DNA of 42,229 nt from an uncultured Verrucomicrobiota bacterium (lineage in GTDB: Bacteria; Verrucomicrobiota; Verrucomicrobiia; JAWXBN01): the NCBI GenBank assembly GCA_964435715.1, contig CAYTAI010000005.1, forward strand, positions 10,190-52,418, written 5' to 3'. Numbering within the stretch: position 1 is the first letter of the stretch; each line of letters begins with the position of its first letter. The notes under the pieces were generated by a model that was not told the DNA's origin, searched no databases, and worked only from the letters and a program-made list of their open reading frames with translations. Made by a program: the position numbers and the translations under genes. Below are positions 782-39,945 of this stretch, piece by piece.

Positions 782-1560
782 GGATTTTTCCTCTTTAAGA
801 TGGAGCGGGGTTGTGGCACGACGATATAACCTTCGCGCAAATTGCCATAGACACGGGGCTTGTGATACCAGGCATGCAACGCAGTGTAAGCACAGATGAA
901 TGAGTCGAGTGTGTCCTCATGCGTTTTCAGGGATTTTCCGCGCAAATTGCGCAGGGGAGTGGACAGGATTTTTTCTGGAAAAAGAGCAGGGGGTGTGGCG
1001 TGGGCTAACGAGCAAATTGCTTTTCGAAACCTCTCAAATTCACCCAGGATAAAACGGCGTGAACGCGTCGGTCGTGACTTGTACTCGAAAATCAGCGGCA
1101 GATCGAAGAGGGCGACATTGGCGGCATGGGGAAAGACCTCGATGACCCGGCGCAATTTGCGCGGGCGGTGCTGCTTCCACTCCGGATCAGCGGAGAATCC
1201 CAACGGCTCGAGACTTTCCAGAATGACCTCCGCGCGCAATTTGCCACCGCCCCAGCGGCAGAGACGCTCACGATTCGACGGATGGGCACCGGCATGATAT
1301 TTCCGAAAGTCTTTATTCAAAAGCTTTTCGGCGGTTCGCGAACCCGATTGGTTCGGCACAACCAGCGGCGCGTCAATGGCGACGATACCCTGCTCCCCCC
1401 GCGCAAATTGCGCCCGGAGATAATCCGCTATTTCGTCATTACTGCCCATACGCCCCTCATACGCGGTGCAAATAGCCCCGCGTCCATCCCATTCCAGCAC
1501 ACAAATGGCAGAGGGATTCCTCAATGACCAAGCCAGGTCAAGGCCGATGAATTTCATCAT
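772..1560 (-). CDS. DUF429-family protein (predicted RNase H-fold nuclease)
   Basis: 262 aa. The N-terminus FIGLDLAW...ICVL and the later [12 protein letters not shown] are typical of DUF429 as I remember it. Convergent 10-nt overlap with the rph 3' end. Confidence 0.5.
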
Positions 1561-1601
1561 AAGAGTTGAAATCTAGACTGAAATCAGTTTATATTCAAAT
1601 C

Positions 1602-1838
1602 ATGAATACTGTATCTATCAGTGAGGCAAAACGAAGTTTGGGTCGTCTGGCTGACAGGGCGATCAAGGGGAAACCCTCTTTGATTATCCGAGGAACTAAA
1701 CTTTTGGTGCTCCAAACGTATGACATGCCTGAGCCTTTTGAGAAACATCCGGTTGGATACTATGGTGATTACGATGAAGATGAGATTACTCTAGAGAGTC
1801 GATTGGCTAAAAAATCGCCTCGAGGTATCATTAAATGA
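1602..1838 (+). CDS. Type II antitoxin, Phd/YefM-like
   Basis: I place the start at ATG 1602; the ORF-track start at 1566 is TTG. MNTVSISEAKRSLGRLADRAIKGKPSLIIRG matches the Phd/YefM N-terminal pattern. ATGA overlap with the downstream toxin gene. Confidence 0.7.
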   Translation: MNTVSISEAKRSLGRLADRAIKGKPSLIIRGTKLLVLQTYDMPEPFEKHPVGYYGDYDEDEITLESRLAKKSPRGIIK

Positions 1839-2164
1839 ATCAGTGGGATGTTTTTCTTTATCCATTCGAAAAAGAGCAACCTCATCCCGTGGTGATTATT
1901 AGCAATGAGGAGAGGTGTATGAATAAGGATTTGTTATGGGTCAATGGATTGCTCTGCACTACAGTCCGTTTGACTCGCCCGCTCAAAAACAGGGAAGTCA
2001 TGCTGGATGAATCGGATGGACTTGATTGGGCCACTGCCGTCCGTTGTGATTTTATCTATTCAATTGAAAAAGCATCTTTAAAAAATAAACGGGGGATCGT
2101 TTCATCCCCGCGACAAAAAATAATCAGTCGCAAACTTGTCGAGGTCTTTCGCTTAAAAATCTAA
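1835..2164 (+). CDS. Type II toxin, PemK/MazF-like
   Basis: 109 aa. The pattern WDVFLYPF...PHPVVIISNEE...VNGLLCTT...DWATAVRCDFIYSIEK fits the MazF/PemK SH3-like fold consensus. Translationally coupled to the antitoxin (4-nt overlap). Confidence 0.65.
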   Translation: MNQWDVFLYPFEKEQPHPVVIISNEERCMNKDLLWVNGLLCTTVRLTRPLKNREVMLDESDGLDWATAVRCDFIYSIEKASLKNKRGIVSSPRQKIISRKLVEVFRLKI

Positions 2165-3246
2165 TACGCTCCACCGGCGGCGGCACACTCAAAGATGAGG
2201 GGGATGATGCCGGTGGTCGTCTGGTATTGAGCATGGAGGGCGGTGATGAATTCCTTGGCTGCACTTTTTTCGACGAGATTGATGGTGGCTCCGCCGAATC
2301 CGCCGCCGCTCAAGCGGGCACCGAGACAGCCGGGCAATTTGCGCGCATGGTCGACGAGGATGTCGAGTTCGCGACAGCTGTTCTCAAAATATTCAACACT
2401 GCTTTCATGTGACTCGAACATCGCCTTTCCGAGCGGAGCCATTTGCCCGGCGCGGAGTTGCTCAACGACGGACAGGACGCGGGCATTCTCACCCACGACA
2501 TGCAGGGCGCGTTTAAATGCCAGGGCGCTTGGATCGGGCAATTTGCTCTGGAGTGTGGCCATATCCACATCACGCAGGGCTTTGACTCCGAGAGTCGCCG
2601 CTGCCGCCTCGCAACTGGTGCGGCGTTCATTGTATTCGCCCGCGACCAGAGCATGTTTGACATTCGAGTGGGCGATGACAAAGCAAGTATCCGTGCCGAG
2701 GGGAATATTCTCCACGCGCAAATGGCGGCAGTCGATAAAGACGGCATGATTTTTTTTGCCGTAGAGCGAACTGATCTGATCCAGCAGTCCGCACTGGACA
2801 CCGACAAAATGATTTTCCGCCGCTTGGCAGACCTTGGCGATTTCGAGGCGTTCCATCCGGAAATCAAAAAGTTTTTGAAGGAAAAGGGCTGTGGCGACCT
2901 CGAGTGCCGCCGAGCTGCTCAAGCCCGCGCCCACAGGCAAATTGCTCCGGATGGACATTTCAAATCCGCCGAGCCGGACTCCTCTTTTCAATAACTCATC
3001 GGCTACCCCGAGCGGATAATTCACCCACGCGATTCCCCCCGTGCGGGGATGGATTTCCTTGAGTGTGGTTTGAAATGTCTGTGCAAATTGCTCCGCGTGG
3101 AGGATGATTTTGTTATCAAGCCGGGATTGACCGCGGACAGTGGTGCCTTTGTCCACGGCAATCGACAGGACATAACCTTCGTTGTAATCCGTGTGATTGC
3201 CGAGGAGCTCAGCCCTTCCGGGTGCATGGGCAAATGCGGATTTCAT
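2161..3246 (-). CDS. galK: Galactokinase (GHMP kinase)
   Basis: 361 aa. It has the galactokinase signature APGRAELLGNHTDYNEGYVL and the GHMP ATP motif PVGAGLSSSAALEVA. Confidence 0.9.
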   Translation of the reverse strand: MKSAFAHAPGRAELLGNHTDYNEGYVLSIAVDKGTTVRGQSRLDNKIILHAEQFAQTFQTTLKEIHPRTGGIAWVNYPLGVADELLKRGVRLGGFEMSIRSNLPVGAGLSSSAALEVATALFLQKLFDFRMERLEIAKVCQAAENHFVGVQCGLLDQISSLYGKKNHAVFIDCRHLRVENIPLGTDTCFVIAHSNVKHALVAGEYNERRTSCEAAAATLGVKALRDVDMATLQSKLPDPSALAFKRALHVVGENARVLSVVEQLRAGQMAPLGKAMFESHESSVEYFENSCRELDILVDHARKLPGCLGARLSGGGFGGATINLVEKSAAKEFITALHAQYQTTTGIIPLIFECAAAGGAY

Positions 3247-3281
3247 ACAGGGCGGAAGTTTCTCAAGCGTCGTGGCGCTGT

Positions 3282-4085
3282 TTATTTTTTGTCCGGTGCA
3301 GGAGCCGGGGCGGCGGGTGCTTTGAAAGGAATCAGGACAATCTCCAGACGGCGGTTGATCGCGCGGTTGGCATCACTGTTATTCGGGACGATGGGTTTGG
3401 TGTCCGCGAGTCCCATCGCCTGGAGGCGGTTGCCGGGAATGCCTTGATCCTCAAGATAACGGACGGCTTCTGCGGCGCGGGATGCGGAGAGTTCCCAGTT
3501 CGACGCAAAACGTCCACCGGGTCGGACCGGAATATTGTCGGTATGCCCCTCGATTCTCGCCGCACGGTCGGGAAAACGTTTGAGGGCGAGGGCGATCTTG
3601 TCGAGGATTTCCTTGGCTTTGGGTCCGATGCCTTGGCGACCAGACTCAATGGGGATACGGTCAGTGATTTTGATGACCAGCTGGTCCCCCGCCTCACTGA
3701 CAGTGACATCCTGTGAATCGATCTGGCTGCGGAGATCATCGCGCAAACCGCCGCCGGCTTTCTGGAGTTTTTCCTTTTCGAGCGCAATTTGCTGCATCTT
3801 CGTTTTTGTATCGGTGAGATTCTGGGTGAGCATGTTCAGCTCGGCATTTTTAGCTTCGAGCTCGGCATTCTTGCGGACGACTTCTCTTTGGACAGACTCG
3901 ACTTCGGAGTTGCGTTTATCGACTTCCGCTGTCAGGATCCGGACTTCTTCTTTCATTTTATTCATCTGCTCGTGGTAGGCCGCCCGCCCGCCCAGCAGAT
4001 AGACGGATAAAATGCCTGTGAAAAGGGCGAATGCCCCGAGGAAAACAGCCCCAAAGAGGGGAACCCTGATCTTGTGAAAATCCAT
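3282..4085 (-). CDS. OmpA/MotB-family protein with N-terminal TM helix and coiled coil
   Basis: C-terminal OmpA-like peptidoglycan-binding domain: IEGHTDNIPV...SNWELSASRAAEAVRYL...NRRLEIVL. I place the start at the internal ATG 4085 (MDFHKIRVPLFGAVFLGAF... is the TM helix), not at the ORF-track start 4334. Confidence 0.8.
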   Translation of the reverse strand: MDFHKIRVPLFGAVFLGAFALFTGILSVYLLGGRAAYHEQMNKMKEEVRILTAEVDKRNSEVESVQREVVRKNAELEAKNAELNMLTQNLTDTKTKMQQIALEKEKLQKAGGGLRDDLRSQIDSQDVTVSEAGDQLVIKITDRIPIESGRQGIGPKAKEILDKIALALKRFPDRAARIEGHTDNIPVRPGGRFASNWELSASRAAEAVRYLEDQGIPGNRLQAMGLADTKPIVPNNSDANRAINRRLEIVLIPFKAPAAPAPAPDKK

Positions 4086-4201
4086 AATATTCTTTGAACT
4101 AATAGCAAAACCGCATGGGTTCAAGATTAAAAGTCGGGCAAAAAATACTTGTTTTTCCAAGCTTGATTGACTTTTGAAAAGATCAGGATTGAATTTGTCG
4201 C

Positions 4202-5488
4202 ATGAGGATGAAAAATCTTTATTTACAGGGGATATGGATATTTTTGAGTATGGGATTCGCTGTGGGAATCCTCTTTGCCCGAGAGGGGCAGGGGATTCCT
4301 CCGGTAAAAGTTCAATCGGTGACAGGGGAACCAACCATTCAACGGGGAGACAAGAGGATGATCCCGCGTGCAGGGGATCCTCTGGAAAAGGGAGATTTGA
4401 TCGAAAGCGGCCCGGGAGCGACTGTCGAAATCCGGGGGGATAAAGGGTTTCTGACCCGGTTGGGGGCGAGAAGTCAGGCTCTTTTTGATATGGAAGGTGC
4501 TTATCTGATGTGCAAGACAGGGATATTTTTGATTGAATCAGTCAATCCGGATCAAACATTGAAAGTGGAAATGCCCCGCGGCATTTTGCAGGTCAAAAAA
4601 GCAACTGTGCTCTTGGAAATCTTTGAGGATGGAGGTTACGAGGTGACTGTATTGGGAGCAGCAGATTATGTCCAGGTCGATGCGCGTTTCGGGTCGAAGG
4701 ATTACATGACTCTTTTGACCACGGGGCAAATTGCACAATTCGAGGCCGGGGAAAATTATTCGGTGCAAATCGGTTCACGCGACGTGCCGGAGCTTTGGAA
4801 AAATCATGCGCTTGGAGAGGTCATGGGTGCCGCACAAAGCGATGTCATCGCTCTTTACACGGCACAGAATCCCGGCAAAAGCGGGGTCGAAACGGTGGAC
4901 GGAATCCGCATCTTTTCTGACAAGCCGCAAGGTGAAATCAAAGGCATTATCCTGCACTTTGGTGGTGATTCCGAATGGATCGAGGGCTGGTATAGCGGAT
5001 GGTTCAAGGAGTTCCCACGCAAAGGAGTCATGATGATTATTCCCGAGCTGCCTCATTTCGGGCGGAGACAATCCGGTGTCGGCCACGCGCCGGGATTCAA
5101 TCAGGATTTAACCAAGGCCATCAAAAAGTATTTGGAACTGCATGGTCTGACAAAATATGCTATGGTACTGAGTTGTGGTTCGCTGGGGGCTCCGACCATG
5201 CATGCGATTTTTCAGTCAAAGGAATTGCCCAATCCCATCGTTGGTGCGGCGATCCATAGCGGCGGGAATTTTTTCAAGCCCGGTGAGGTGCAACACCTCT
5301 TGATTGCTTCTCCGAAACCAAGAGTGCAGCCCCAACAAACGGTCAAAACCATTCCGGTTGTCATCGAAGGGTTTCAGAAACAAGGCGAGGTGACCACCTA
5401 CGTGGACTCGCATATCTCGTGGCATCATGTCTTTCAAGATCAAATGCTTGCATGGCTTCAAAAGGAAAAAGTTTTCGGCGCGCTCTGA
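4202..5488 (+). CDS. Secreted/membrane-anchored protein with FecR-like N-terminal domain, C-terminal part unknown
   Basis: 428 aa. Hydrophobic N-terminus. AGDPLEKGDLIESGPGATVEIRGDKGFLTRLGARSQALFD resembles the FecR sensor domain. I do not recognise the rest. Confidence 0.4.
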   Translation: MRMKNLYLQGIWIFLSMGFAVGILFAREGQGIPPVKVQSVTGEPTIQRGDKRMIPRAGDPLEKGDLIESGPGATVEIRGDKGFLTRLGARSQALFDMEGAYLMCKTGIFLIESVNPDQTLKVEMPRGILQVKKATVLLEIFEDGGYEVTVLGAADYVQVDARFGSKDYMTLLTTGQIAQFEAGENYSVQIGSRDVPELWKNHALGEVMGAAQSDVIALYTAQNPGKSGVETVDGIRIFSDKPQGEIKGIILHFGGDSEWIEGWYSGWFKEFPRKGVMMIIPELPHFGRRQSGVGHAPGFNQDLTKAIKKYLELHGLTKYAMVLSCGSLGAPTMHAIFQSKELPNPIVGAAIHSGGNFFKPGEVQHLLIASPKPRVQPQQTVKTIPVVIEGFQKQGEVTTYVDSHISWHHVFQDQMLAWLQKEKVFGAL

Positions 5489-7695: not shown

Positions 7696-8448
7696 ATGAT
7701 GAATAAAATTTACTCCCGCCGTGACATTATTAAATGGGGAATCCTTGCCGGTGTGGCTGCTGGATTAAAAGTATCCCCGGTGAACGCGCAGACACCGCCC
7801 CCGCTCCCGGATATCTATCTCCAGAAATACCCTTTTTCATTGCCGCCATTGGGTTATTCATTTGAAGCACTCGTCCCCATGATTGACGCAGAGACGATGC
7901 GGATACATTATGAATTGCATCATGGCGCCTATGTGAAAAACCTGAATGATGCGGTCGCCTCCGATCCGCTTTTGCAGCAAAAGACTCTGGGAAACATTCT
8001 CTCCCGGCTGGACGAGGTTCCCGGGCCCATCCGCGCGAAAATCCGCAATAATGGCGGCGGTCATCTCAATCACTCTCTTTTCTGGCCATCCATGAAAAAG
8101 GGGGCTCGCTGGAATCCACGGGGCGAATTTGCCCAAAAAGCAACCTCATCATTCGGTTCCAAAGAAGAGTTTCTCAAGCAATTTGCCGCGTCGGCGATGA
8201 GTGTCTTTGGCAGTGGTTGGGCATGGGTGATTGACAATCCGGAAACGGGCAAGTTGACCTTGGAAACTTCCGCCAATCAGGACAGTCCTTGGATGCGGGG
8301 TGTCAAGCCGCTGCTCGGGATTGACGTGTGGGAACACGCCTACTATCTCAAGTACCAGAATCGCCGCGCCGACTATGTCAAAGCCTTCGAGCAAATCATT
8401 GATTGGCAAACTGTCGAGCACCGTTTCAATCAAGAGTCAAAAGTTTAG
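7696..8448 (+). CDS. Fe/Mn superoxide dismutase, exported (Tat-like signal)
   Basis: LPPLGYSFEALVPMIDAETMRIHYELHHGAYV and DVWEHAYYLKYQNRRADYV are canonical SOD_Fe motifs. The N-terminus SRRDIIKWGILAGVAAG looks like a twin-arginine signal. Start taken at ATG 7696. Confidence 0.9.
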   Translation: MMNKIYSRRDIIKWGILAGVAAGLKVSPVNAQTPPPLPDIYLQKYPFSLPPLGYSFEALVPMIDAETMRIHYELHHGAYVKNLNDAVASDPLLQQKTLGNILSRLDEVPGPIRAKIRNNGGGHLNHSLFWPSMKKGARWNPRGEFAQKATSSFGSKEEFLKQFAASAMSVFGSGWAWVIDNPETGKLTLETSANQDSPWMRGVKPLLGIDVWEHAYYLKYQNRRADYVKAFEQIIDWQTVEHRFNQESKV

Positions 8449-8843
8449 TCCGCATTCACCGCCAATTCCCGCAGGTAAGAGAAAGTGTAGAGCCCTGTGT
8501 CATGCCCGTCCCCCCATACGGGCTGGAGGGCGTAACCCCCCACGAGATTGTATTTGACCAGGGACTTTCTCTTTTCCGGGTCGCCTTCTTTTGTCACAGC
8601 CTTGTAGAGATTCCCGAGCAAATCGCGTTCACCCAGACATGACGCACACGGACAGGCGGCGCGCAATTTGCCCAGATCGAAATATGACTCGAGGCCATCG
8701 TCCCAAGCGATGGCCAGTTCGTCCGCGATTTGCTGGATATTCAGGGGTTTCATGCCGCGGACATCATACCCAGAGTCCGGCATAATTGTCAAAAGGCTCT
8801 CGCGGGCTGGTATATCAAACTCATTTTTTGACTTGCTATACAT
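8445..8843 (-). CDS. DUF971-family protein (gamma-butyrobetaine hydroxylase-like N-terminal domain)
   Basis: 132 aa. LAIAWDDG...LRAACPCASC...LQPVWGDGHDTGLYTFSYLR matches DUF971 as I remember it. The start codon is uncertain. Confidence 0.55.
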   Translation of the reverse strand: MYSKSKNEFDIPARESLLTIMPDSGYDVRGMKPLNIQQIADELAIAWDDGLESYFDLGKLRAACPCASCLGERDLLGNLYKAVTKEGDPEKRKSLVKYNLVGGYALQPVWGDGHDTGLYTFSYLRELAVNAD

Positions 8844-10747: not shown

Positions 10748-10854
10748 TTGATTCTGAGCAATTTGCTTTTCCAGACAAAGCCGCCCCAAAAAACATTGAA
10801 AAAAATTCAACGAATCCGATAGGGTCACTGTCTATATTATTGGTTAGGTTTAGT

Positions 10855-13255: not shown

Positions 13256-13343
13256 TCCTCAAAATGGGTTTTTTGCCGGGCGCAAATTGCGCGGGCATCA
13301 TGTGACGCGGGAGATTTTCTGTCGAGAGGATAATCTAAAAAAA

Positions 13344-29822: not shown

Positions 29823-30007
29823 TTCACCCCCACTCTAACCAATCCCCCGCGCAATTTGCCAGCCCCGATTTTTTCCGGCATGCGTTTCATTACACAAGAA
29901 TAACTACAGACAGCATTGTATTACGGGGCAAGACTCAGACAGAACAAGACACACATTTGTGTAGAGCAATAAGCTTGCATGCAGAATGCTTCAACATATT
30001 TGTTCGA

Positions 30008-30724
30008 TTACGAGGTTTCACTGTTTGAACACTCTGTTGCTGATGAGTTTTGCACTACAGGCTGTGAACTAATTAAATAATCCTGTCGCTGAAGATAAGA
30101 TTTGATGTTATACAAAGTTTTGGATAGAATCTCAATAGTTTGTATTTGAGCAAGTTCCAAGTCGGACGGAGAGGCATTTCTCCCAACATCAGCAAACGAT
30201 TTAACTCCGTGGGCAAGATCATTACGCGCATTTTTTACTGTCTGAAGCATCCAGTATTTACCCTCTGGCGCAGCAAAGCCAAAACGATTCGCAGTCGATC
30301 TAATCATCCTTGCATCCAAATTGCCCCCAAAAGTTTCAGTACATTCAAATGTTTCATGAACGATATCCCGCGCAAGCGAGAAAAGCTTTGGGAGCAACTT
30401 GTCTATGTCGCGCCTCTTGAAATTTTTTAAAATCTCCCGACGCAACTCCTCTCGACAGCGATCATAACTTGCCTGCTTTTCTTTTAACTCATCAAAAATA
30501 GCTTCAATTGCATTTCGCATTGTAGATTCGACTAAGTTGTAAAGAAGCAAATAACATGTGGCTTTAAATGTCTTAAGCAACTCCTCATCTTCGTGATTTG
30601 AGCAACCACCAGTATCATCCTTTACTTGCAAAGCAACCTCCTTCTTTGCCAGACGAAGAACGAACCGAAAGAAACCTTCAACTTCTTTTGATCGAGTTTC
30701 AAAATCGATGATTACAGAATTCAT
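30008..30724 (-). CDS. HEPN-domain protein (MAE_28990/MAE_18760-like predicted RNase)
   Basis: 238 aa, all-helical flavour. Rx4H motif R167-N-D-L-A-H172 (KNARNDLAHG, encoded at 30209-30226). YLLLYNLVESTMRNAIEAIF resembles that HEPN family as I remember it. ATGA overlap with the DUF262 gene. Confidence 0.65.
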   Translation of the reverse strand: MNSVIIDFETRSKEVEGFFRFVLRLAKKEVALQVKDDTGGCSNHEDEELLKTFKATCYLLLYNLVESTMRNAIEAIFDELKEKQASYDRCREELRREILKNFKRRDIDKLLPKLFSLARDIVHETFECTETFGGNLDARMIRSTANRFGFAAPEGKYWMLQTVKNARNDLAHGVKSFADVGRNASPSDLELAQIQTIEILSKTLYNIKSYLQRQDYLISSQPVVQNSSATECSNSETS

Positions 30725-31809
30725 GAGACAGTTCCTAGAAGGCGATCACGAACATACTCAATACGAAGCTTAACGCGTGGCTTCGAATTGCTAGAATCCG
30801 ATGTTGTTAATTCGCGAAACTCATCACTCTCTGACCAATCTTCCGTGGAGGGAGGTATCAAATTAGGATTCTCTCGCAATGCCAACGCAACACCCACAGA
30901 AATCGCTTCGTAACGAACACGTTTTGCTGTTCGAAAATTTCGACGACGGAATCCTTTATTAGGAAAATATTTTTCAACGAATTGCAACATGCTGTCATAC
31001 TCTTTCCACATAGCTTTTTCATCGAAACCGTTGTTTTTTTCCTTTACATATAAATCAAGAAATTCTTTTACGCTCTTGTCAAAATCCAAATAACGCTCTG
31101 CATATGCAAAGAATCGGAGAGCAAACTCTTCGCGCTCTCTTCGTTTGATGTATGAAGGGGAAAGAGGCGCGAGCTTATGTAATAACGGATGTGCCGCGCA
31201 TTTTTCAATGAAAGTTACGAATGGTCCACGCATGATTCCACGACGTTGTTCCATATCTCGGAGCGGATCGCTTCCTGTGTTGATTCTCTCAAATAAATCG
31301 CGCCGCGTTTCTTCGTCCGCTTCGTCCGAAAGAGCTATGATTCGAATTGTGGTTCGATTAAACTTTCTTTGTCGAACAAGCGGTAGCTGATCAAATGTAG
31401 GGCCATTTAGTAAAGGCAGTTTTTCAAGACCACCAAGAACCATTCTTCCAGAAGAAAATTCCGTTAGTGTTCGAATACGTTGCGAACCATCCACAATTTC
31501 AAGCCTGCCCTCTTCATCTTCGACCTCCGCCAAAAACAAAAACGGAATTGGTAATCCAATCAACACTGACTCAATAAACTTCGACTTTCTCTTTTCATCC
31601 CATGTATGATCGCGTTGATAATCTGGAATATAAAATTCCGCTTTACTTTCTGCTATATTTTGTTCTTCGCCTTCCCCCATATATTTTGAAACTATAACCT
31701 CAATGGGATATTCGATTATATTGTAATCAACTACTTTCCTATGCTCTTCAATTTGAGCTTCAGCCTCTTCAGTATTGAGTTGAGGCAAGTTAGGTTGTTG
31801 TGCGGGCAT
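30721..31809 (-). CDS. DUF262 (ParB/Srx-fold, GmrSD N-terminal-like) domain protein lacking a DUF1524 nuclease domain
   Basis: 362 aa. IPDYQRDHTWDEKRKSKFIESVLIGLPIPFLFL (the DUF262 'YQR..W' motif), then EIVDGSQRIRTL (the DGQQR-type motif). I recognise no His-Me/HNH motif in the C-terminal helical part. Confidence 0.75.
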   Translation of the reverse strand: MPAQQPNLPQLNTEEAEAQIEEHRKVVDYNIIEYPIEVIVSKYMGEGEEQNIAESKAEFYIPDYQRDHTWDEKRKSKFIESVLIGLPIPFLFLAEVEDEEGRLEIVDGSQRIRTLTEFSSGRMVLGGLEKLPLLNGPTFDQLPLVRQRKFNRTTIRIIALSDEADEETRRDLFERINTGSDPLRDMEQRRGIMRGPFVTFIEKCAAHPLLHKLAPLSPSYIKRREREEFALRFFAYAERYLDFDKSVKEFLDLYVKEKNNGFDEKAMWKEYDSMLQFVEKYFPNKGFRRRNFRTAKRVRYEAISVGVALALRENPNLIPPSTEDWSESDEFRELTTSDSSNSKPRVKLRIEYVRDRLLGTVS

Positions 31810-31811
31810 TG

Positions 31812-32918
31812 TTATCCTTTCAACTTCAGTTGTTCGAGATGTAATTGAATTGTTTTGCCAACCACTTCACCCAATCGAACAGGCACGGCATTGCCTATCA
31901 TTCGTCCGATAGTTTTGAAGCTGAAGTCCTCGCCGTCTCTGACAAATTTGTAATTTTTGGGGAAAGATTGAAGAATCGCACCTTCACGCAGGGAGATGGC
32001 GCGGTTTTGCTCAGGATGACCGAAACGTCCGTTACCATAGCCATAGAATTGGGTGGTAATAGTTGGAGAGGGTTTGTCCCATTCCATGCGCGCATAAACA
32101 CCTGAGTAACTTTTACCTGACTTTTTCTTGTGACACTCGGCAACCAACCTCTCTGGCCAATCGCGCCATGTGCCACCAGGTCGAGAATGGCGAATTCGTC
32201 GGAGATTTAGAGGAGAAAGTGCACTGGTGCGATGCATTGGGTCATGAGGATGAGTTTCTCCGGATTCAAGTGGCGGTAACGAGCGCAAGGCATCGGCAAC
32301 GTTACGATATTTATTAGGTTTATGCGTGGGCGGAATCAATTCAATCGGGCCAAGTCGCGAAGCAATGACCACGACACGGCTACGGTGTTGGGGGATGCCG
32401 TAATCTGGGCAATAAATCACCCTTTGACCAGCATCCTTATTAAAATAAAAACCCTCATTGGTGAGCGTCGCGAGAAAAGAAGCGAAGACAGGGTAGCGTT
32501 GAAGCTCGGGAACGTTCTCCATCGAAACGATATCTGGCTGAAGTTCTCTCACAAGTCGGGAAAAATGGTTGAGCAGCGTCCACTTGGGATCATTCTCGTT
32601 GTCGAGCCCCTGAGTATACTTGGAGAACGTCTGACAAGGAGCACAACCAACCAAAACTTTGATACAACCCACGGGATAGTGCGTGGCAAGCTCGTCTCCA
32701 GGGAGTTCGGTCACGCTTTTTTGAAAAAACTGAGCGGGTTGATTGTTGTGCTCATAGGGAAACTGACAGGCGGGATCAATGTCGTAACCGGCAGCGACTT
32801 CAATTCCGGCATCAAGCAATCCATGTGTTAGGCCGCCAGCACCACAAAAAAGATCGACAGCAACGGCTTTCACCTTGCTAGGTTTGTGCATGAATGATTT
32901 CCCTCGGGCGTATTTCAT
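31812..32918 (-). CDS. DNA (cytosine-5)-methyltransferase
   Basis: 368 aa. Motif I DLFCGAGGL, motif IV GCAPCQTFS (catalytic Cys), motif VI SMENVPEL, motif VIII QHRSRVVVIA, motif IX REGAILQSFP, motif X GNAVPV. Alternative start at ATG 32891. There is a 2-nt spacer to the DUF262 gene. Confidence 0.92.
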   Translation of the reverse strand: MKYARGKSFMHKPSKVKAVAVDLFCGAGGLTHGLLDAGIEVAAGYDIDPACQFPYEHNNQPAQFFQKSVTELPGDELATHYPVGCIKVLVGCAPCQTFSKYTQGLDNENDPKWTLLNHFSRLVRELQPDIVSMENVPELQRYPVFASFLATLTNEGFYFNKDAGQRVIYCPDYGIPQHRSRVVVIASRLGPIELIPPTHKPNKYRNVADALRSLPPLESGETHPHDPMHRTSALSPLNLRRIRHSRPGGTWRDWPERLVAECHKKKSGKSYSGVYARMEWDKPSPTITTQFYGYGNGRFGHPEQNRAISLREGAILQSFPKNYKFVRDGEDFSFKTIGRMIGNAVPVRLGEVVGKTIQLHLEQLKLKG

Positions 32919-33709: not shown

Positions 33710-33740
33710 CCACCTTGTGGACAAGTTAGCGGTTGATTTT

Positions 33741-33954: not shown

Positions 33955-34004
33955 CTTTGCGGAACCTTGCGGGAAATGACTTCTTTTGTTTTCTTTCGTG
34001 CTTT

Positions 34005-34655
34005 TCAGGACGCGCTGAGCCTTGAGACCGCGCGGTCAGCGGTGGCGGCGGTGGCGGAGGCATCGCTGAGTGTCATGCACAGATCTTTGATCAAACCATC
34101 TTTGAGCCCGTAAATCCAACCGTGCAGGGTGAGCTCCTGCCCGCGCATCCACGCATCCTGCACCGAGGTCGTCTCGCTGAGGTTGACGACCTGCTCGATG
34201 ACATTGAGCTCGCAAAGAAGGTTCATCCGCTGCGTCTGCGTCCCGCAATCCGACAGGAGCCGGTGGTGTTTGTGGCGGACGTCATTGATGTGGCGGAGCC
34301 AGTTGTCACTCAAGCCCACGCGGTCACCGCGCCCGACGATGTGAACCCCGCTGCATCCGTAGTGTCCGCAGACGATGATGTGTTTGACCTTGAGCAGGTC
34401 CACGGCAAATTGCACCACCGAGAGGCAATTCAAATCCGAGTGGCACACGACATTGGCGATATTGCGGTGGACGAAAAGTTCGCCCGGCAGCAGTCCGACG
34501 ATTTCATTTGCCGGCACACGGCTGTCGGCGCATCCGATCCAGAGGTATTCGGGCAATTGCTGCCGCGAGAGCTGCTCGAAAAAATCCGGCTGCTCACGGG
34601 TGATGGCCTCCGCCCATTGGCGGTTTTTTTCAAATAGATGATTCAGTCCACTCAT
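34005..34655 (-). CDS. Beta-class carbonic anhydrase
   Basis: 216 aa. PEYLWIGCADSRVPANEI (Zn-ligand Cys plus the Asp/Arg dyad) and IIVCGHYGCSGV (His/Cys Zn ligands) are canonical Can/CynT motifs. Confidence 0.9.
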   Translation of the reverse strand: MSGLNHLFEKNRQWAEAITREQPDFFEQLSRQQLPEYLWIGCADSRVPANEIVGLLPGELFVHRNIANVVCHSDLNCLSVVQFAVDLLKVKHIIVCGHYGCSGVHIVGRGDRVGLSDNWLRHINDVRHKHHRLLSDCGTQTQRMNLLCELNVIEQVVNLSETTSVQDAWMRGQELTLHGWIYGLKDGLIKDLCMTLSDASATAATADRAVSRLSAS

Positions 34656-35613: not shown

Positions 35614-36769
35614 TGTTGCGACGGAGCTGCTGCTTGAGTTGTTTTGCCGCCACCGCGTAACCCCCCGAGCCGCCGTCGATAAAATGGATGTGATGCCCGT
35701 CCTTGATGTCCTGGACAAAACACGTCATCAGTGACTCCTCCGACTCGTGTAACCCAAAGCAAATTGCCCCGCCGCGATGCAGCCCGTCCAGAAAGTCCCG
35801 GATCCGGGCGGCTTGTTTTTCCGAACAATCAATGGTCATCCGCAGCATGTCGTCAAATTTCCGGTAGTCGGAATGGGTTCGCATCGAGGCTTTGTAATGG
35901 GCGGTGTCAAAAAGGGGGTTCGGCACCTTGTGCTTGAAAAGCAGCACGGCGGCAAGGATTTCATACAGCCGGTATAAATAGCCGGGCGACCAGCGGGAGG
36001 TGGTGTAACGCTTTTCATCCGTCACGCATTCCCCGGCGGTTTTGTAGGTCATCAGCTCGGTATTCACAGGGTTGGCATGATTGATATCCCCGTCATAGAG
36101 CCCGTTGAGAAAATCGAGGATGTCCTGATAGGTGCGATCCGTATTTTGACCTTGTGCGACGACGAGCAGGGAGAGCACACGCCCGCGTTTATTCGGGATA
36201 TTCTTCCAGCGACAGGAGAGCCCTTTGAGCTCGACAAATCCGGGGGGCAGAGCCGGGCATTGATATTTTTCGCCGCCGGTCTTGATCATTTTTTCGGCGT
36301 GCGTGAGTCCGCCGCCGCGGAAGACGGCGATACATTTTCCCGTTGCCAGCTCGTGTTTGGCGACCTCAATCGGATTCCCCGAGTCCCTTGTTTCGGCGAC
36401 GGAAATCCGCCCGGTCCTCAGGGCGAGTCCAAATTGCTCGGTTGCCAGCCGTTGCAAATTGCCCAGAGTCGCGTCGACAGCATCCCGTTTTTGCGGGGGA
36501 ACGAGCATCGTCGCCCCGTCCCCGCCAAAGACGTAGGGGAAATCCTCCTCCAAAACATTCCTGACCACGGCGATCGAGGCGGCGCCGATGGTATTGACAT
36601 CCTTGTAACGGCCGGACTCTATCGCTTGGGTCGAGCCTTTCACATCGGTGATGTAAACCCACCAATCTGCCGGGATTGTCGCAAAATGACTGTCGGCGGT
36701 GATTTCCCGGAAATCCGAAAAACTTTTGAGATCGTGGTAAAACCGGGATGAGTCCATGACTGGCTGCAA
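35594..36769 (-). CDS. DUF3095-family protein (nucleotide-cyclase-like fold predicted)
   Basis: 391 aa. FYHDLKSFSDFREITADSHFATIPADWWVYITDVKGSTQAIESGRYKDVNTIGAASIAVVRN...FGGDGATMLVP matches DUF3095 as I remember it. Its 3' end overlaps the convergent GYF gene by 20 nt. Confidence 0.6.
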   Translation of the reverse strand: MQPVMDSSRFYHDLKSFSDFREITADSHFATIPADWWVYITDVKGSTQAIESGRYKDVNTIGAASIAVVRNVLEEDFPYVFGGDGATMLVPPQKRDAVDATLGNLQRLATEQFGLALRTGRISVAETRDSGNPIEVAKHELATGKCIAVFRGGGLTHAEKMIKTGGEKYQCPALPPGFVELKGLSCRWKNIPNKRGRVLSLLVVAQGQNTDRTYQDILDFLNGLYDGDINHANPVNTELMTYKTAGECVTDEKRYTTSRWSPGYLYRLYEILAAVLLFKHKVPNPLFDTAHYKASMRTHSDYRKFDDMLRMTIDCSEKQAARIRDFLDGLHRGGAICFGLHESEESLMTCFVQDIKDGHHIHFIDGGSGGYAVAAKQLKQQLRRNTTKTID

Positions 36770-36845
36770 CCTATCACAGTCCCCCGGGATTACAAAAAAT
36801 TTCTGCTTCGCTTGGGGGCGATTTTTCGGTTAGGGTGGGCGGGTT

Positions 36846-37406: not shown

Positions 37407-37432
37407 CTTTTTTTAAAAACAGAATACAAGCC

Positions 37433-38842
37433 ATGCCAGAATCCTTGCCCACTGCCGATGCTGCCGCTCCCGCGTATGATCCCGGCGCCGTCGCTGCAAA
37501 GCAGCTCCATGACGAGGTCGTCCGCACCCGCCGCCGCCGGCTCCTGCCGCGTGCCTTGGTGGTGGGAATCCTCGCGGGCTTGCTGGGTGTGGCTTTCCGT
37601 GTGGCGCTGGAATGGAGCGGTCGCGCGCGGGGCAAATCGCTCGCGTGGCTCCAGGAAACTCTCGGTGTCTGGGGCATGGCAGTGCCCGTTCTCTTCTGTG
37701 CGGTGGCGTGCGGGGTCGCGGTGTATCTGGTGAAACGATTTGCTCCGGAGGCAGCGGGCAGCGGCATCCCGCATGTCAAAGCCGTCATTACCGGGCTGCG
37801 CCCGATGCGCTGGATTCGCACGACTTTGGTGAAGTTTTTCGGCGGGCTCCTCGCCATCGGCTCCGGCATGGCTCTCGGGCGCGAGGGACCGACCGTGCAA
37901 ATGGGCGCGGCGATGGGGCAGCTCACCGGCGAGAAAAGCGGCAGTGGCGGGATGGAGCGTCAAACCCTTGTCTCCTCCGGCGCGGCGGCGGGATTGACCG
38001 CCGCATTCAATGCGCCCTTTGCAGGCATCCTTTTTGTCATCGAGGAGCTCCACGGCAAGATCACGCCAAATACTTTTTTCGGTGCCTTCATCGCGTGTAT
38101 CGCGGCGGACACGGTGATGCGTTTGATCCTCGGACAGACACCGTATTTCGGGATGATGAGTTTCGAGTTGTTGCCCTTGGGCGTTTTGCCCGCCTTCATA
38201 TTGCTCGGAGTTTTGGCGGGGTGGGGCGGTGTTTTGTTTAACAAATTGCTCGTCCGCTCAATGGATTTTTTTGCGAAGGCACGCCATTTGCCCGCGTGGT
38301 GGGGCGGGGCGGCGGTGGGCGCGGGCATCGGGTTGACGGGATGGTTCCTCCCGGAGACATTGGGCGATGGACAGGATTTGTGGCAGGGGATGTTCGCGAT
38401 TGAATACTCCTTTGCAGCGATTGGATTTTTATTTGTCCTGCGTTTTGTCATGAGCATTCTGTGTTACGGCACGGGTGCTCCGGGCGGGATATTTGCCCCG
38501 ATCCTGGTGCTGGGAGGATTCATGGGTCTCGCCACGGGAATGCTGGTGCAGATTTTCTGGCCGGGAGCCGGGGTGCATCCCGCTCTTTTTGCGGTGGCGG
38601 GCATGGGCGCATTTCTCGTCGGCAGTGTGCGCGCACCGCTGACGGCGATCATGCTTATCGTGGAGATGAGCGGGGATTACAATCTCATCCTGCCCCTGCT
38701 GGTCGCCTGTCTCTCGGCGTATGCCGCCGCGGAAGCAACGGGGGACAAAGCCATTTACGAGGCTCTGCTGGAGCGTGACATCAAACGCAGTGCCGCGGCG
38801 CAAGAGTCCGCTGCGGTGCTGCCGGCAGGGGAAAAGCAATGA
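37433..38842 (+). CDS. clcA: ClC-family H+/Cl- exchange transporter
   Basis: 469 aa. Selectivity-filter motifs GSGIPHV, GREGPTVQ (gating Glu) and GGIFAPIL, plus NAPFAGILFVIEEL. Confidence 0.88.
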   Translation: MPESLPTADAAAPAYDPGAVAAKQLHDEVVRTRRRRLLPRALVVGILAGLLGVAFRVALEWSGRARGKSLAWLQETLGVWGMAVPVLFCAVACGVAVYLVKRFAPEAAGSGIPHVKAVITGLRPMRWIRTTLVKFFGGLLAIGSGMALGREGPTVQMGAAMGQLTGEKSGSGGMERQTLVSSGAAAGLTAAFNAPFAGILFVIEELHGKITPNTFFGAFIACIAADTVMRLILGQTPYFGMMSFELLPLGVLPAFILLGVLAGWGGVLFNKLLVRSMDFFAKARHLPAWWGGAAVGAGIGLTGWFLPETLGDGQDLWQGMFAIEYSFAAIGFLFVLRFVMSILCYGTGAPGGIFAPILVLGGFMGLATGMLVQIFWPGAGVHPALFAVAGMGAFLVGSVRAPLTAIMLIVEMSGDYNLILPLLVACLSAYAAAEATGDKAIYEALLERDIKRSAAAQESAAVLPAGEKQ

Positions 38843-39945
38843 CCCGGCGCAAATTGCTCGGCCTGGTGGAGCAAATTGTCTCCCTGCCGACGGCTCCCTA
38901 CCATGAGACGGCGGTGAAAGAGTGCTTACAGGCGTGGGCGCGCAAATTGCGCGTGGACATGAAAGAGGACAAGTATGGCAATTTGCTCGTGCGATACCGT
39001 CATTCCGCGGCGCGCAAGCGGGTGGCTTTTGCCGCGCACACCGATCATCCGGGGTTTGAAATCACCGGCTGGCGCTCGCCGCAAATTGCCCGGGCGGTCT
39101 TTCTCGGCGGGGTCTCCCGCGGGTATTTCAGAAAAGGAACCGCCGTGATCCTTTTCTCCCGTGCGGGCGCGAAACTCGCGCGCGCGCAAATTGCGCGGGT
39201 GGTGGATTGGGAAAAAAAGGTGGTGGAGCTGCGCGTGACGGGGCGGACGGATGTCCCGCGCGGGCAAGCCGTTTTTGGTATGTGGGATTTACCGCCCTTT
39301 GTCCGGCGGGGCAATTTGCTCCATGCGCGTGTGTGTGACGATCTCATGGGGGTGGCGGCTCTCTGCGCGTTGCTCGAGCAACTTGCCCGGGGGCGGGTTC
39401 GCGCGGATGTCACAGCGGTTTTCACGCGGGCGGAGGAGGTGGGGTTTGCCGGTGCCCTGGGTCTGACCCGGAGCAAATTGCTCCCGACGGGGGTTACGGT
39501 CATTTCCATCGAGAATAGTCAAGCATTGCCAGACACTCCGGTCGGGGGAGGGGCTGTGGTGCGTGTGGGCGACCGCAGCAGTGTCTTTGATCCCGGGGTG
39601 ACTGCGGAGTTAACCGCTCTTGCCGGGCAAATGTCTGCGAAAAATAAAAAGTTTTTTTACCAGAGGCGTTTAATGCACGGGGGGAGCTGTGAGGGGACTG
39701 TTTACCAGATGTCCGGTTATAGGACGGGGGCATTGTGCCTGCCGATGGGGAATTATCATAATATGTCAAAAAAGAGTAAAATCGCCTGTGAATACGTGGA
39801 TTTACGCGATTTAGAGGGGTTAATCGCGCTCATGTCAGGCTATGCCAGGGCTGTTGGCACGCAAGTTGCGGGACAAAAATTGAAAAAAAGGCTGGATGAA
39901 ATCTGGGCTTCCGGTAAGAGGAAATTGCTCAATCCCAAGAATTAA
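38839..39945 (+). CDS. M42/M28-like metallopeptidase family protein (tentative)
   Basis: 368 aa. LPTAPYHETAV...DKYGNLLV...RVAFAAHTDHPGFEI resembles the N-terminal part of M42 (FrvX-type) aminopeptidases. ATGA overlap with the ClC gene. Confidence 0.45.
   Translation: MTRRKLLGLVEQIVSLPTAPYHETAVKECLQAWARKLRVDMKEDKYGNLLVRYRHSAARKRVAFAAHTDHPGFEITGWRSPQIARAVFLGGVSRGYFRKGTAVILFSRAGAKLARAQIARVVDWEKKVVELRVTGRTDVPRGQAVFGMWDLPPFVRRGNLLHARVCDDLMGVAALCALLEQLARGRVRADVTAVFTRAEEVGFAGALGLTRSKLLPTGVTVISIENSQALPDTPVGGGAVVRVGDRSSVFDPGVTAELTALAGQMSAKNKKFFYQRRLMHGGSCEGTVYQMSGYRTGALCLPMGNYHNMSKKSKIACEYVDLRDLEGLIALMSGYARAVGTQVAGQKLKKRLDEIWASGKRKLLNPKN

Follow-up and report, generated by a model that had tools for sequence, protein, structure and literature searches.

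Why does one nine-base palindrome, GCAAWTTGC, recur so often in the DNA of an uncultured Verrucomicrobiota bacterium? The whole stretch analyzed here (the window, 42,229 nucleotides) holds 44 exact sites, 23 with A and 21 with T at the center of the + strand, the first at 837-845 and the last at 39473-39481 (Table 1). A one-sided 8-mer core is found at 13 additional sites. GCAAWTTGC is the commonest 9-mer of the window, and the runners-up, with 18 copies or fewer, are all overlaps of the motif. Dinucleotide-preserving shuffles of the window give a mean of 1.06 copies and a maximum of 4, and Markov models of order 0 to 4 predict 0.3-1.4; orders above 4 are contaminated by sub-words of the motif itself. 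Enrichment over the low-order models is about 40-fold. This recount bears out the initial annotation, which had described a hyper-abundant motif with the same number and split of copies, about a dozen extra 8-mer cores, and a chance expectation far below the count.

Table 1. Motif sites and motif-free features of the window (strand in brackets for the gene that holds a site)
Feature	Position	Strand	Context
GCAAATTGC	837..845		DUF429 gene (772-1560, -), read GNLR
GCAAATTGC	942..950		DUF429 gene, read RNLR; common to L328, center base switched
GCAAATTGC	1012..1020		DUF429 gene, rare frame 0, read AIC
GCAATTTGC	1152..1160		DUF429 gene, read RKLR; common to L328
GCAATTTGC	1236..1244		DUF429 gene, read GKLR; common to L327 and L328
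GCAAATTGC	1403..1411		DUF429 gene, read AQFA; common to L327
GCAATTTGC	2334..2342		galactokinase (2161-3246, -), read RKLP; common to L327
GCAATTTGC	2538..2546		galactokinase, read SKLP
GCAAATTGC	2937..2945		galactokinase, read SNLP; outgroups conserved ST[LIV]P
GCAAATTGC	3083..3091		galactokinase, read EQFA; common to L328
GCAATTTGC	3784..3792		OmpA/MotB-like gene (3282-4334, -), read QQIA; common to L328
GCAAATTGC	4726..4734		428-aa gene of unknown family (4202-5488, +), read GQIA
GCAATTTGC	8178..8186		superoxide dismutase (7681-8448, +), read KQFA
GCAATTTGC	8663..8671		GBBH-like_N gene (8445-8843, -), read GKLR; common to L327
GCAATTTGC	10312..10320		rhodanese-domain gene (9461-10828, -), read RKLH
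GCAAATTGC	10380..10388		rhodanese-domain gene, read VQFA
GCAATTTGC	10539..10547		rhodanese-domain gene, read EQIA
GCAATTTGC	10758..10766		near 5' end of longest rhodanese ORF, read KQIA
GCAAATTGC	11141..11149		CMD-like 221-aa gene (10972-11637, -), read AQFA
GCAATTTGC	11331..11339		CMD-like gene, read SKLP
GCAAATTGC	12654..12662		acetolactate-synthase-like TPP enzyme (11537-13255, -), read KQFA
GCAAATTGC	13282..13290		intergenic; TPP-enzyme start codon 27 nt downstream
GCAAATTGC	17893..17901		outside supported genes; 92 nt past DUF2126 gene 3' end
GCAAATTGC	18889..18897		DUF2126 gene (17993-20248, -), read RNLL
GCAATTTGC	19240..19248		DUF2126 gene, read SKLL
GCAATTTGC	19851..19859		DUF2126 gene, read RQIA
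GCAATTTGC	23283..23291		circularly permuted ATP-grasp/alpha-E gene (22033-24567, -), read SKLP
GCAATTTGC	23357..23365		circularly permuted ATP-grasp/alpha-E gene, read EQIA
GCAATTTGC	27864..27872		putative ORF 27736-28359 (-), no family match
GCAAATTGC	28900..28908		RmuC (28437-29822, -), read EQFA, as in 4/4 clade taxa; outgroups conserved [ED]QFQ
GCAAATTGC	29671..29679		RmuC, read EQFA
GCAATTTGC	29692..29700		RmuC, read AQIA; common to L331
GCAATTTGC	29734..29742		RmuC, read AQIA; common to L331 and L333
GCAATTTGC	29851..29859		intergenic; RmuC start codon 29 nt downstream
acquired defense island	30008..32918	-	motif-free, low GC3 (0.33-0.46)
HEPN	30008-30724	-	part of motif-free defense island
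GmrSD_N/DUF262	30721-31809	-	part of motif-free defense island
C5 cytosine methylase	31812-32918	-	part of motif-free defense island
GCAAATTGC	34405..34413		carbonic anhydrase (34005-34655, -), read VQFA
GCAAATTGC	35759..35767		DUF3095 gene (35594-36769, -), frame 0, read AIC
GCAAATTGC	36454..36462		DUF3095 gene, read GNLQ
GCAAATTGC	38849..38857		M42-type peptidase (38839-39945, +), read RKLL
GCAAATTGC	38942..38950		M42 peptidase, read RKLR; common to L084
GCAATTTGC	38978..38986		M42 peptidase, read GNLL; 15 nt identical in 4/4 clade taxa
GCAAATTGC	39081..39089		M42 peptidase, read PQIA; L084: GCAAATGGC
GCAAATTGC	39186..39194		M42 peptidase, read AQIA; common to L084; L081 and L086: GCAAATTGT
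GCAATTTGC	39311..39319		M42 peptidase, read GNLL; L084: GTAATTTGC
GCAAATTGC	39473..39481		M42 peptidase, read SKLL; common to L084
BamA	39975..42229	+	runs past window end; 78-88% identity to clade orthologues

About 90% of the sites lie within ordinary genes, on both coding strands and in two reading frames: across all genes, xGC-AAW-TTG-Cxx occurs 18 times, xxG-CAA-WTT-GCx 19 times, and GCA-AWT-TGC, which requires a Cys codon, only twice. Density is about 1.1/kb within genes versus about 0.7/kb between them. The six peptide readings that had been given for the M42 peptidase gene proved correct. Three positions had been called intergenic, and this holds for 13282 and 29851, which together with 17893 are the clearly nongenic sites; the third, 10758, falls inside the longest ORF of its gene and may occupy a leader position if the true rhodanese start lies further downstream.

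A mundane answer would be that the motif is not special at all and either reflects base, codon, or peptide composition or marks the conserved center of some longer mobile repeat (MITE, REP). Some copies do resemble one another over stretches of up to about 27 nt (70-85% identity), and the peptides compatible with the motif are themselves enriched about six-fold. Yet codon-order shuffling leaves 0.5 of the 41 genic copies, and resampling of synonymous codons with the proteins kept leaves 3.3. Farther than about 6 nt from the core, similarity falls to background, and no longer repeat unit holding the motif was found, as expected of the independent short motif that had been proposed in place of a MITE. 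The peptide excess arises because clade-specific replacements create the motif. Together with the shuffles, the Markov models, and the placement in genes, these results refute a compositional or repeat origin, to which we give hardly any credence.

What the coding sequence records instead is pressure at the level of DNA, as the initial annotation had argued. The motif fills nearly every codon context able to hold it: it is present in 39-41 of the 53 compatible peptide contexts, including 19 of 21 xQ[IF]A and 20 of 26 [SRGC][KN]L[LPHQR] contexts. It has also overwritten amino acids conserved outside the clade. The EQFQ of RmuC (conserved [ED]QFQ in outgroups) reads EQFA in each of the four clade taxa, and the STLP of GalK (conserved ST[LIV]P) is SNLP in the clade; both replacements complete the motif. 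Weakly constrained protein positions are preferred, with outgroup conservation of 0.57 for motif-encoded columns versus 0.72 (P = 1e-8), and the most conserved genes sampled (e.g., BamA, RNase PH) are motif-free. BamA exemplifies a gene that is under strong constraint and lacks the motif, with no copy in any of four taxa (the window and three orthologues). RNase PH, OmpH, and the aminotransferase have none either.

The invariant core belongs to a degenerate palindromic consensus of 13-19 bp, cccG[not T]-GCAAWTTGC-[not A]Cggg, with G at -2 in 76% of sites, C at +2 in 75%, T seldom at -1, and A seldom at +1. Flanks that extend the symmetry had been noted before; this is true of the consensus and not of individual sites, where complementarity does not exceed marginal base frequencies and no hairpin covariation is detected. 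The motif is a signal in duplex DNA, not a peptide or RNA signal, a hairpin, or a mobile repeat. Such symmetry and independent half-site preferences would suit an abundant nucleoid-associated or chromosome-organizing protein whose dimer reads GCAA/TTGC half-sites across a narrow AAWTT minor groove, with selection for chromosome architecture. The A-tract-like invariant center between GC clamps fits this picture, as do the clumping of sites (variance-to-mean ratio of 1.63 in 1-kb bins, P about 0.009) and their conservation between orthologues described below. Operator-like arrays of TAGCAAWTTGCTA on a phage contig make it plausible that palindrome-reading proteins exist, and Xu et al. proposed a nucleoid role for the cyanobacterial palindrome HIP1 from its periodic distribution (PMC5861425). 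We nevertheless regard an architectural role as unlikely, because it leaves unexplained both the overwriting of conserved residues and the prolonged absence of the motif from acquired DNA. Moreover, known architectural sites (parS, matS, SlmA or Noc sites) number tens to hundreds per genome, far sparser than about one per kilobase, and nucleoid proteins that bind at that density are loosely specific.

Conservation in related genomes had been proposed as a check at the outset. The motif is the top 9-mer in six lineages (the window and five relatives) of a small group of little-known Verrucomicrobia with GC contents of 0.485-0.575, at 29-76 times the order-3 Markov expectation. This clade carries it throughout its resident DNA and densely in every lineage, with 151 sites in 194 kb and 0.5-1.3 copies per kb. 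The next-nearest relatives, L329 and L330, have no copies in 21 kb each, and the motif is not present in 80 other Verrucomicrobiota loci examined. Literature searches turned up no prior description, in keeping with the earlier impression. Within the clade, the acquired defense island of the window serves as a negative control, indicating that newly gained DNA is without the motif; no copy occurs in the Dcm-EcoRII insertion of L084 either. This contrast between resident and acquired DNA could point to a Chi-like or defense-related self marker, with a recombination or defense nuclease that spares, or is modulated by, site-bearing DNA and degrades foreign DNA without the site; HIP1 located within homology arms has been proposed to exert a Chi-like effect (bioRxiv 10.1101/2024.09.10.611283). 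The palindromy of the motif and its lack of A/T center bias argue otherwise, and no candidate nuclease was linked to it in the sampled DNA. Chi sites are asymmetric, replication-oriented, and over-represented only a few-fold, and we consider a marker of this kind improbable.

Motif sites are kept between orthologues in 46 of 119 ordered comparisons versus 7.3 expected, a retention roughly six times that of other 9-mers; at one DUF429 site (942..950), L328 keeps the motif with its central W switched between A and T. Sites are also gained and lost despite this high retention. Homologous positions in relatives are often one transition away (GCAAATTGT, GTAATTTGC, ACAATTTGC), and the single motif-affecting SNP between populations 99.8% identical is C2<>T. 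Counts of the one-base variants in 148 kb of clade DNA differ strongly, with excesses of ACAAWTTGC (G1>A, 25 versus 4.1 expected), GCCAWTTGC (A3>C, 24 versus 4.2), and GCGAWTTGC (A3>G, 21 versus 4.1) and background levels at positions 2 and 4. These excesses could as easily be a repair or methylation footprint. On such an account, a clade-specific methyltransferase would recognize the palindrome or its inner core, associated mismatch repair would convert near-matches, and the motif would need no function of its own; HIP sequences have reportedly been explained in this way by Elhai's ratchet model. Palindromy is typical of Type II methyltransferase sites, and saturation of permissive contexts and absence from acquired DNA fit equally well. 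Variants of HIP are found together with their cognate methylases, and departures from HIP1 concentrate at its end positions (PMC4390886). Orthologous retention, too, could come from repeated regeneration by directional repair without selection for function; for HIP1, site conservation has been argued to mean selection and not replenishment (PMC5861425), and the same six-fold excess is seen here. We judge a repair footprint somewhat unlikely. No cognate enzyme was found in the clade DNA sampled, where the only methylases, that of the window and the Dcm beside EcoRII in L084, both belong to acquired islands that have low GC3 and no motif, and neither is clade-wide. Very-short-patch repair acts on CCWGG, and its enrichment of that site in E. 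coli is a small multiple of expectation, far short of 30-76 fold. It would also be unusual for a Type II enzyme to recognize nine bases with a degenerate, AT-rich center.

The answer we favor, tentatively and with a little less than even confidence, is that GCAAWTTGC is a genomic self-signature of the HIP1/USS/DUS type, recognized by a symmetric protein during DNA uptake or recombination. The proposed likeness in density, about one copy per kb, is supported. The DNA-level pressure, the retention between orthologues, and the absence from acquired islands and the most conserved genes are typical of HIP1 and of USS/DUS alike. HIP1 is likewise a palindrome, and its orthologous sites are conserved (PMC5861425). 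For uptake sequences, the patterns seen in the proteome, in conservation, and in new genes are the same (PMC2817400). However, proven USS and DUS are asymmetric and often form inverted pairs in terminators, whereas GCAAWTTGC is palindromic and not enriched between genes. HIP1 abundance correlates with DNA-uptake machinery (bioRxiv 10.64898/2026.06.24.733823), and methylated HIP1 raises natural-transformation efficiency (bioRxiv 10.1101/2024.09.10.611283). The 194 kb of clade DNA, a small sample, showed neither a competence gene nor a receptor nor a conserved orphan methyltransferase.

Under the self-signature reading, the clade would encode a homodimeric reader, most likely active in uptake or homologous recombination of conspecific DNA and possibly reading the site only when methylated. 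Uptake or recombination would then favor fragments bearing the site, molecular drive would spread mutations that create a site and selection would maintain them, and foreign DNA, lacking the site on arrival, would acquire it only slowly. If the motif is an uptake tag, CCCGCGCAAATTGCGCGGG should be preferred over a scrambled control in uptake or transformation. This clade has altered even its protein sequences to fit GCAAWTTGC.

We consider GCAAWTTGC very probably a real signature of the HIP/USS type. An exact search of the window confirmed the count and placement made in the initial annotation, with 44 copies, 23 carrying A and 21 carrying T at the centre. The claimed excess over lower-order composition also holds: Markov models of orders 0-4 predict 0.3-1.4 copies in the window, and shuffles that preserve dinucleotides average 1.06 copies and never exceed 4. 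Models of orders 5-7 come near the observed count only because they are built on sub-words that stem from the motif itself, and they are invalid as a null for 42 kb. The motif, enriched ~40-fold, is the top 9-mer of the window by a wide margin, and the runners-up among 9- to 12-mers are its overlaps or extensions; 13 additional sites keep the core but just one of the two outer G/C bases. When the window is divided into 1-kb bins, the sites are clumped (variance-to-mean ratio 1.63, P ~0.009). A compositional by-product is excluded as the origin of the motif. An RNA-level explanation was rejected as well, since a tRNA search of the window found none and an Rfam search returned no match.

With either base accepted at the W centre, the motif reads identically on both strands. 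Alignment of the 44 sites (numbered G1 to C9, with flanks as negative and positive positions) places G at -2 in 34 and C at +2 in 33, with T avoided at -1 and A avoided at +1; positions -3 to -5 are C-rich, and the opposite side is G-rich in mirror image. The flank pattern is alike in four lineages of differing base composition, and these preferences therefore yield a consensus of about cccG[not T]-GCAAWTTGC-[not A]Cggg, which spans 13-19 bp and whose flank information fades within ~6 nt. The earlier observation that the flanks extend the symmetry stands for the consensus and is not supported within single sites, where left-right complementarity does not rise above what marginal frequencies predict. 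The symmetry thus belongs to whatever recognises the motif, and selection for a hairpin or cruciform is rejected on the same ground and because a 1-nt loop is impossible. A repeat finder run on the window returned only families of 18-32 nt (66-90% identity) that have the motif at their centre, and nothing longer that contains it. REP/BIME, MITE and Correia-type elements are likewise high-copy and contain palindromes, but they are extragenic units of 20 to 300 bp or longer that depend on transposases for their mobility. A mobile repeat of the MITE or REP type is excluded by the 9-bp core, the genic location of ~90% of the copies and the absent longer unit, which leaves an independent short motif, as originally proposed.

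The genes of the window are ordinary housekeeping genes, among them those for RNase PH, galactokinase (GalK), SOD, an aminotransferase, RmuC, ClcA, an M42-type peptidase and BamA. Just four or five of the 44 sites are extragenic, motif density is lower in intergenic than in genic DNA, and no terminator pairs occur among the extragenic sites of the window. More than one reading frame is used, as had been noticed at first reading: 18 sites lie in the frame xGC-AAW-TTG-Cxx, which encodes [R/G/S]-[K/N]-L-x, 19 in xxG-CAA-WTT-GCx, which encodes x-Q-[I/F]-A, and only 2 in the Cys-requiring frame. Site loads are highest in the genes for M42 (7) and DUF429 (6), followed by GalK, RmuC and a rhodanese-domain gene (4 each); no site falls in RNase PH, the aminotransferase, ClcA or BamA. 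The DUF429 family is predicted to consist of RNase H-fold nucleases, and the pairing of that prediction with the heavy motif load may well be coincidence.

Pressure acts on the DNA and is near saturation. With the proteins fixed and synonymous codons redrawn from window usage, 3.3 ± 1.9 of the 41 genic copies remain, and shuffling of codon order leaves 0.5. The motif is used in 39-41 of the 53 peptide contexts able to encode it (19 of 21 for xQ[IF]A and 20 of 26 for [SRGC][KN]L[LPHQR]), and these results bear out the proposal that it is upheld at the DNA level and not by protein. Comparison with outgroups further indicates that the motif has rewritten proteins. One RmuC site reads EQFA in 4 of 4 clade lineages and a conserved [ED]QFQ in nine outgroups, a GalK site reads SNLP in the clade as against ST[LIV]P in outgroups, and the AQIA sites of M42 stand in place of unrelated outgroup residues. 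The frequency of the encoded peptides is at least doubled by the motif. Outgroup conservation is lower in the columns that the motif encodes than in the remaining ones (0.57 vs 0.72, Mann-Whitney P = 1e-8), and the most conserved of the sampled proteins, BamA, RNase PH and OmpH, are motif-free in every lineage.

Homologues of RNase PH place the window in the Verrucomicrobiota, with best matches of 59-71% identity among the matches listed, and none of the 80 Verrucomicrobiota loci among those matches (Akkermansia, Rubritalea, Chthoniobacterales and Limisphaerales included) is enriched in the motif. These distant matches, which do not include the clade itself, serve as a negative set; closer relatives were found via the protein homologues of M42, GalK and RmuC and their contigs. 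In every one of them the motif is again the top 9-mer, so that its conservation in related genomes extends to all six lineages, the window included. Loci of this clade were reached through GalK at an identity of at least 76%, RmuC at an identity of at least 83%, or M42 at 57-61% identity in a syntenic locus with BamA at 78-88%. The sample consists of genome fragments totalling ~194 kb from the six lineages (GC 0.485-0.575) and holds 151 sites, which amounts to 0.5-1.3 motifs per kb and an enrichment of 29-76 fold over the order-3 Markov expectation. The next-nearest relatives, L329 (GCA_034440535.1, GalK 56% identical) and L330 (GalK 59% identical), have 0 copies in 21 kb each; set against the dense clade, these zeros therefore mark a sharp phylogenetic boundary of the trait. 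HIP1 is at background in the clade loci, with 0-1 copies per locus. In clade locus L328, the second-commonest 9-mer, GCCCTACAC, was rejected as a rival motif, being part of a local repeat only and not present in the window. Searches of viral contigs with a two-copy motif pattern gave matches at about the chance expectation, and those of metagenome contigs with a three-copy pattern were dominated by CRISPR arrays, satellites and tandem repeats, with dispersed-looking copies in L310 and L314 alone.

Some clade sequences carry cyanobacterial names. The NCBI records concerned, assemblies GCA_030285465.1 (L084) and GCA_030163865.1 (L085) and a protein, P0121, are labelled Kamptonema cortianum, Oscillatoria laete-virens and Oscillatoria amoena. 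The assemblies include contigs of 110-162 kb that gene content and synteny assign to the verrucomicrobial clade; their RNase PH is 87.5% and their BamA 88% identical to those of the window, and HIP1 is almost nil. The contigs are probably co-culture contamination or mislabelling, and their occurrence suggests that the clade lives alongside filamentous cyanobacteria.

Codon alignments of 17 orthologous families show a motif site kept in the orthologue in 46 of 119 ordered comparisons, which are not phylogenetically independent, against a gene-matched expectation of 7.3. The excess is about six-fold, and other 9-mers are identical between orthologues at a rate of 6.8%. One M42 site has 15 nt identical in four lineages whose proteins are only ~60% identical, and at a DUF429 site the motif is kept as its centre swaps between A and T and the encoded residue changes. 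Many sites are lineage-specific, and the other lineages are typically 1-2 bases off at these places (GCAAATTGT, GTAATTTGC, GCAAATGGC). One motif copy shows a recent gain or loss at strict position 2, where L334 and L335 (populations 99.8% identical, each from its own sample) are set apart by one transition (CGCGCAAATTGCGCG vs CGCGTAAATTGCGCG).

One-base variants of the motif are unevenly represented in 148 kb of clade DNA. G1>A (equal to C9>T) was observed 25 times with 4.1 expected, A3>C 24 times with 4.2 expected, A3>G 21 times with 4.1 expected and W5>S 6 times with 0.9 expected, and positions 2 and 4 show about as many variants as expected. The pairs C2/G8 and A4/T6 are therefore strict, and positions 1, 3 and 5 are tolerant or mutation-prone. 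This pattern could reflect graded function, as in the one-mismatch variants of HIP1 (PMC5861425), and it could equally be the footprint of repair or methylation (PMC4390886). The second possibility speaks for the main rival explanation, a methylation-linked ratchet of biased repair that would maintain a motif with no function of its own, which we judge unlikely. In genomes of the HIP class, an enzyme that methylates the palindrome or its inner core is an expected trait, HIP variants co-occurring with cognate methylases (PMC4390886). No motif-specific methyltransferase was found in the 194 kb of clade fragments, where the only two methylases both sit in acquired, motif-free islands. The island of the window has a GC3 of 0.33-0.46 compared with ~0.6-0.7 elsewhere and ~0.65 in adjacent genes and so is clearly acquired, and its C5 methylase is rejected as a driver in view of the low-GC3, motif-free surroundings and the relatives that have no conserved copy. 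In L084, a Dcm-EcoRII pair has been inserted between ClcA and M42, which are adjacent genes in the window; the insert has a GC3 of ~0.42 and 0 motifs, and its flanking genes have 1 and 6 copies. Acquired DNA lacks the motif. Like CCWGG, of Dcm/very-short-patch repair in E. coli, GCAAWTTGC is a W-centred palindrome whose frequency could be lifted by directional repair of near-matches. The enrichment of CCWGG in E. coli is modest and tied to the Dcm/Vsr pair, whereas the clade motif is enriched 29-76 fold and no cognate enzyme pair was found in the sampled clade DNA.

The coordinates of individual features are collected in the table. The six co-oriented genes that form a low-density run in the window are a duplicated form of a conserved ATP-grasp/alpha-E/transglutaminase cassette. 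BamA and shikimate kinase were recognised solely through orthologues.

Features of the window and of other loci, with coordinates in the respective sequence
Feature	Locus	Coordinates	Strand	Description
DUF429 gene	Window	772-1560		Most motif-loaded gene, 6 sites in 789 bp; 3-4 per orthologue
Six-gene run	Window	17993-27236	-	DUF2126 (putative amidoligase), two transglutaminase-like, circularly permuted ATP-grasp fused to alpha-E, stand-alone alpha-E, second circularly permuted ATP-grasp; 5 motifs in 9.2 kb
Inverted repeat	Window	28332-28414		26-nt arms, 85% complementary, 31 nt apart; between ORF 27736-28359 and rmuC 3' end; may be a terminator or regulatory hairpin
Defence island	Window	30008-32918	-	HEPN (MAE_28990-like), GmrSD_N/DUF262, C5 cytosine DNA methylase; motif-free
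Segment next to island	Window	32919-34004		~1.1 kb, no convincing ORF
Listed ORF	Window	36774-37346	-	Spurious, antisense to shikimate kinase
Shikimate kinase	Window	36846-37406	+	Real gene
BamA	Window	39975-42229		Missing from ORF list; gene runs past window end
Listed ORFs	Window	40083-40625, 40665-41429	-	Antisense shadows of BamA
Segmental/tandem repeat	L328 (and L314)	2400-3300 (L328)		Local, ~220-340 bp, carries GCCCTACAC(A)
Population difference	L334, L335	9877		C2<>T
CRISPR array	L230	15-1491		37-nt repeat GTCTCCAATGCCTTTCGGCAAATTGCTTCGGGTCTTC, motif at centre
CRISPR array	L309	1-950		Same repeat
CRISPR arrays	L226, L253, L268			Same repeat
Operator-like clusters	L119 (phage contig, IMG/VR)	3317-3375, 4170-4264		Two clusters of three TAGCAAWTTGCTA-type sites, 25 bp spacing

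Like HIP1 (GCGATCGC) and the alternate cyanobacterial HIPs, GCAAWTTGC is a short palindrome in tens-fold excess at about one per gene. As with HIP1, it is common to a whole lineage and has coding and non-coding sites, orthologous conservation above background and enriched one-base variants (PMC5861425, PMC4390886). HIP1-type over-representation runs from 15 to 300 fold across a genome, and orthologous sites and near-variants of HIP1 are conserved (PMC5861425); the 29-76 fold enrichment in the 194 kb sample falls within that range, and in the clade the motif is retained in 46 of 119 comparisons against 7.3 expected. Unlike HIP1, the motif has a Verrucomicrobiota host, an odd length, a W centre, an AT-rich core and a 13-19 bp consensus, and the GATC/CGATCG methylase core is missing from it. 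Periodic spacing at 10-90 kb belongs to the HIP1 class, and within the 42-kb window the pattern seen is clumping on the 1-kb scale. GCAAWTTGC is HIP-like, but it is neither HIP1 nor a described HIP1 variant. The likeness in density to HIP1, USS and DUS that the initial annotation had drawn persists across the six lineages, at 0.5-1.3 per kb. With the USS of Pasteurellaceae and the DUS of Neisseriaceae, the motif shares a frequency of ~1 per kb, a strong core in a weaker extended consensus and occurrence in related species. It further shares with them the use of permissive frames, shifted peptide frequencies, a preference for weakly conserved genes and residues, and absence from recently acquired genes or genes without homologues (PMC2817400, PMC3630211). 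Uptake sequences alter peptide frequencies, occupy weakly conserved genes and residues and are missing where close homologues are lacking (PMC2817400), and the clade sites occupy resident, weakly conserved positions. In contrast, USS and DUS are asymmetric, often form inverted terminator pairs and have a proven uptake bias, whereas GCAAWTTGC is palindromic and not enriched in intergenic DNA. The motif lies outside both the narrow definition of HIP1 (an octamer of cyanobacteria, GC-rich and built on a methylase core) and the narrow definition of USS/DUS.

All of these properties match documented traits of uptake sequences and HIP1, and a self-DNA tag is therefore the reading that we favour, as a serious possibility that stops a little short of probable. 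A symmetric protein of an uptake or recombination pathway would read the tag as duplex DNA, molecular drive would spread it and selection would retain it. Methylated HIP1 raises natural transformation efficiency by 100-fold at most (bioRxiv 10.1101/2024.09.10.611283), and HIP1 abundance tracks the DNA-uptake machinery across cyanobacteria (bioRxiv 10.64898/2026.06.24.733823). Neither type IV pilus, ComEA, ComEC or DprA machinery nor a sequence-specific receptor was seen in the 194 kb of fragments. That the motif is a second, independent invention of a genome-wide palindromic self-tag, outside cyanobacteria, and a transformation signal in Verrucomicrobiota is possible but rather doubtful; if true, it would be the first palindromic uptake sequence and the Verrucomicrobiota would supply the third bacterial lineage with uptake specificity. 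Chi is also an over-represented short motif and is tied to recombination and the marking of self DNA. However, Chi is asymmetric, replication-oriented and enriched only a few-fold, whereas GCAAWTTGC is symmetric, enriched ~40-fold and divided between A (23) and T (21) at its centre, and a Chi-like or defence self marker is very unlikely. A dimeric DNA-binding protein that reads the palindrome is plausible in view of phage contig L119, which is unrelated to the clade and whose clusters look like repressor operators. An architectural role, in which the motif would be a binding site, seems to us quite improbable.

The CRISPR arrays with the motif in their repeat share a JGI project (Ga01631xx) with clade loci L328 and L335, and the 7.9 kb flanking the array in L309 holds a single further motif. 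HIP1 likewise lies inside a Synechocystis CRISPR repeat (PMC6604393). The presence of GCAAWTTGC in the repeat may be coincidence, the search having selected for repeated motifs.

The impression that this motif had not been described agrees with the searchable, incomplete literature, which gives no account of it or of any hyper-abundant Verrucomicrobiota palindrome; motif strings in the text occur only in primers and unrelated sequences. To our knowledge, hyper-abundant short motifs are rare, and the well-documented cases are limited to USS/DUS, in two proteobacterial families, and cyanobacterial HIP1, the function of which is debated after three decades. GCAAWTTGC is a very strong new case, with the same evolutionary signatures in an unrelated phylum and a different sequence, and it suggests that the phenomenon is broader than thought. 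Because relatives with GalK at 56-59% identity already stand at zero, a comparison of gene content across this boundary could identify the reader or writer protein. Motif-rich lineages adjoining motif-free close relatives provide a clean comparative contrast for phylogenetic profiling, and the protein, once found, could also inform the 30-year-old problem of HIP1. The motif is a sensitive binning marker for clade contigs and can also expose assemblies with wrong labels, as in the 'Kamptonema' and 'Oscillatoria' records, and reveal recently acquired DNA. If the motif promotes uptake or recombination, it could serve as a means of rendering the organisms of this clade genetically tractable.
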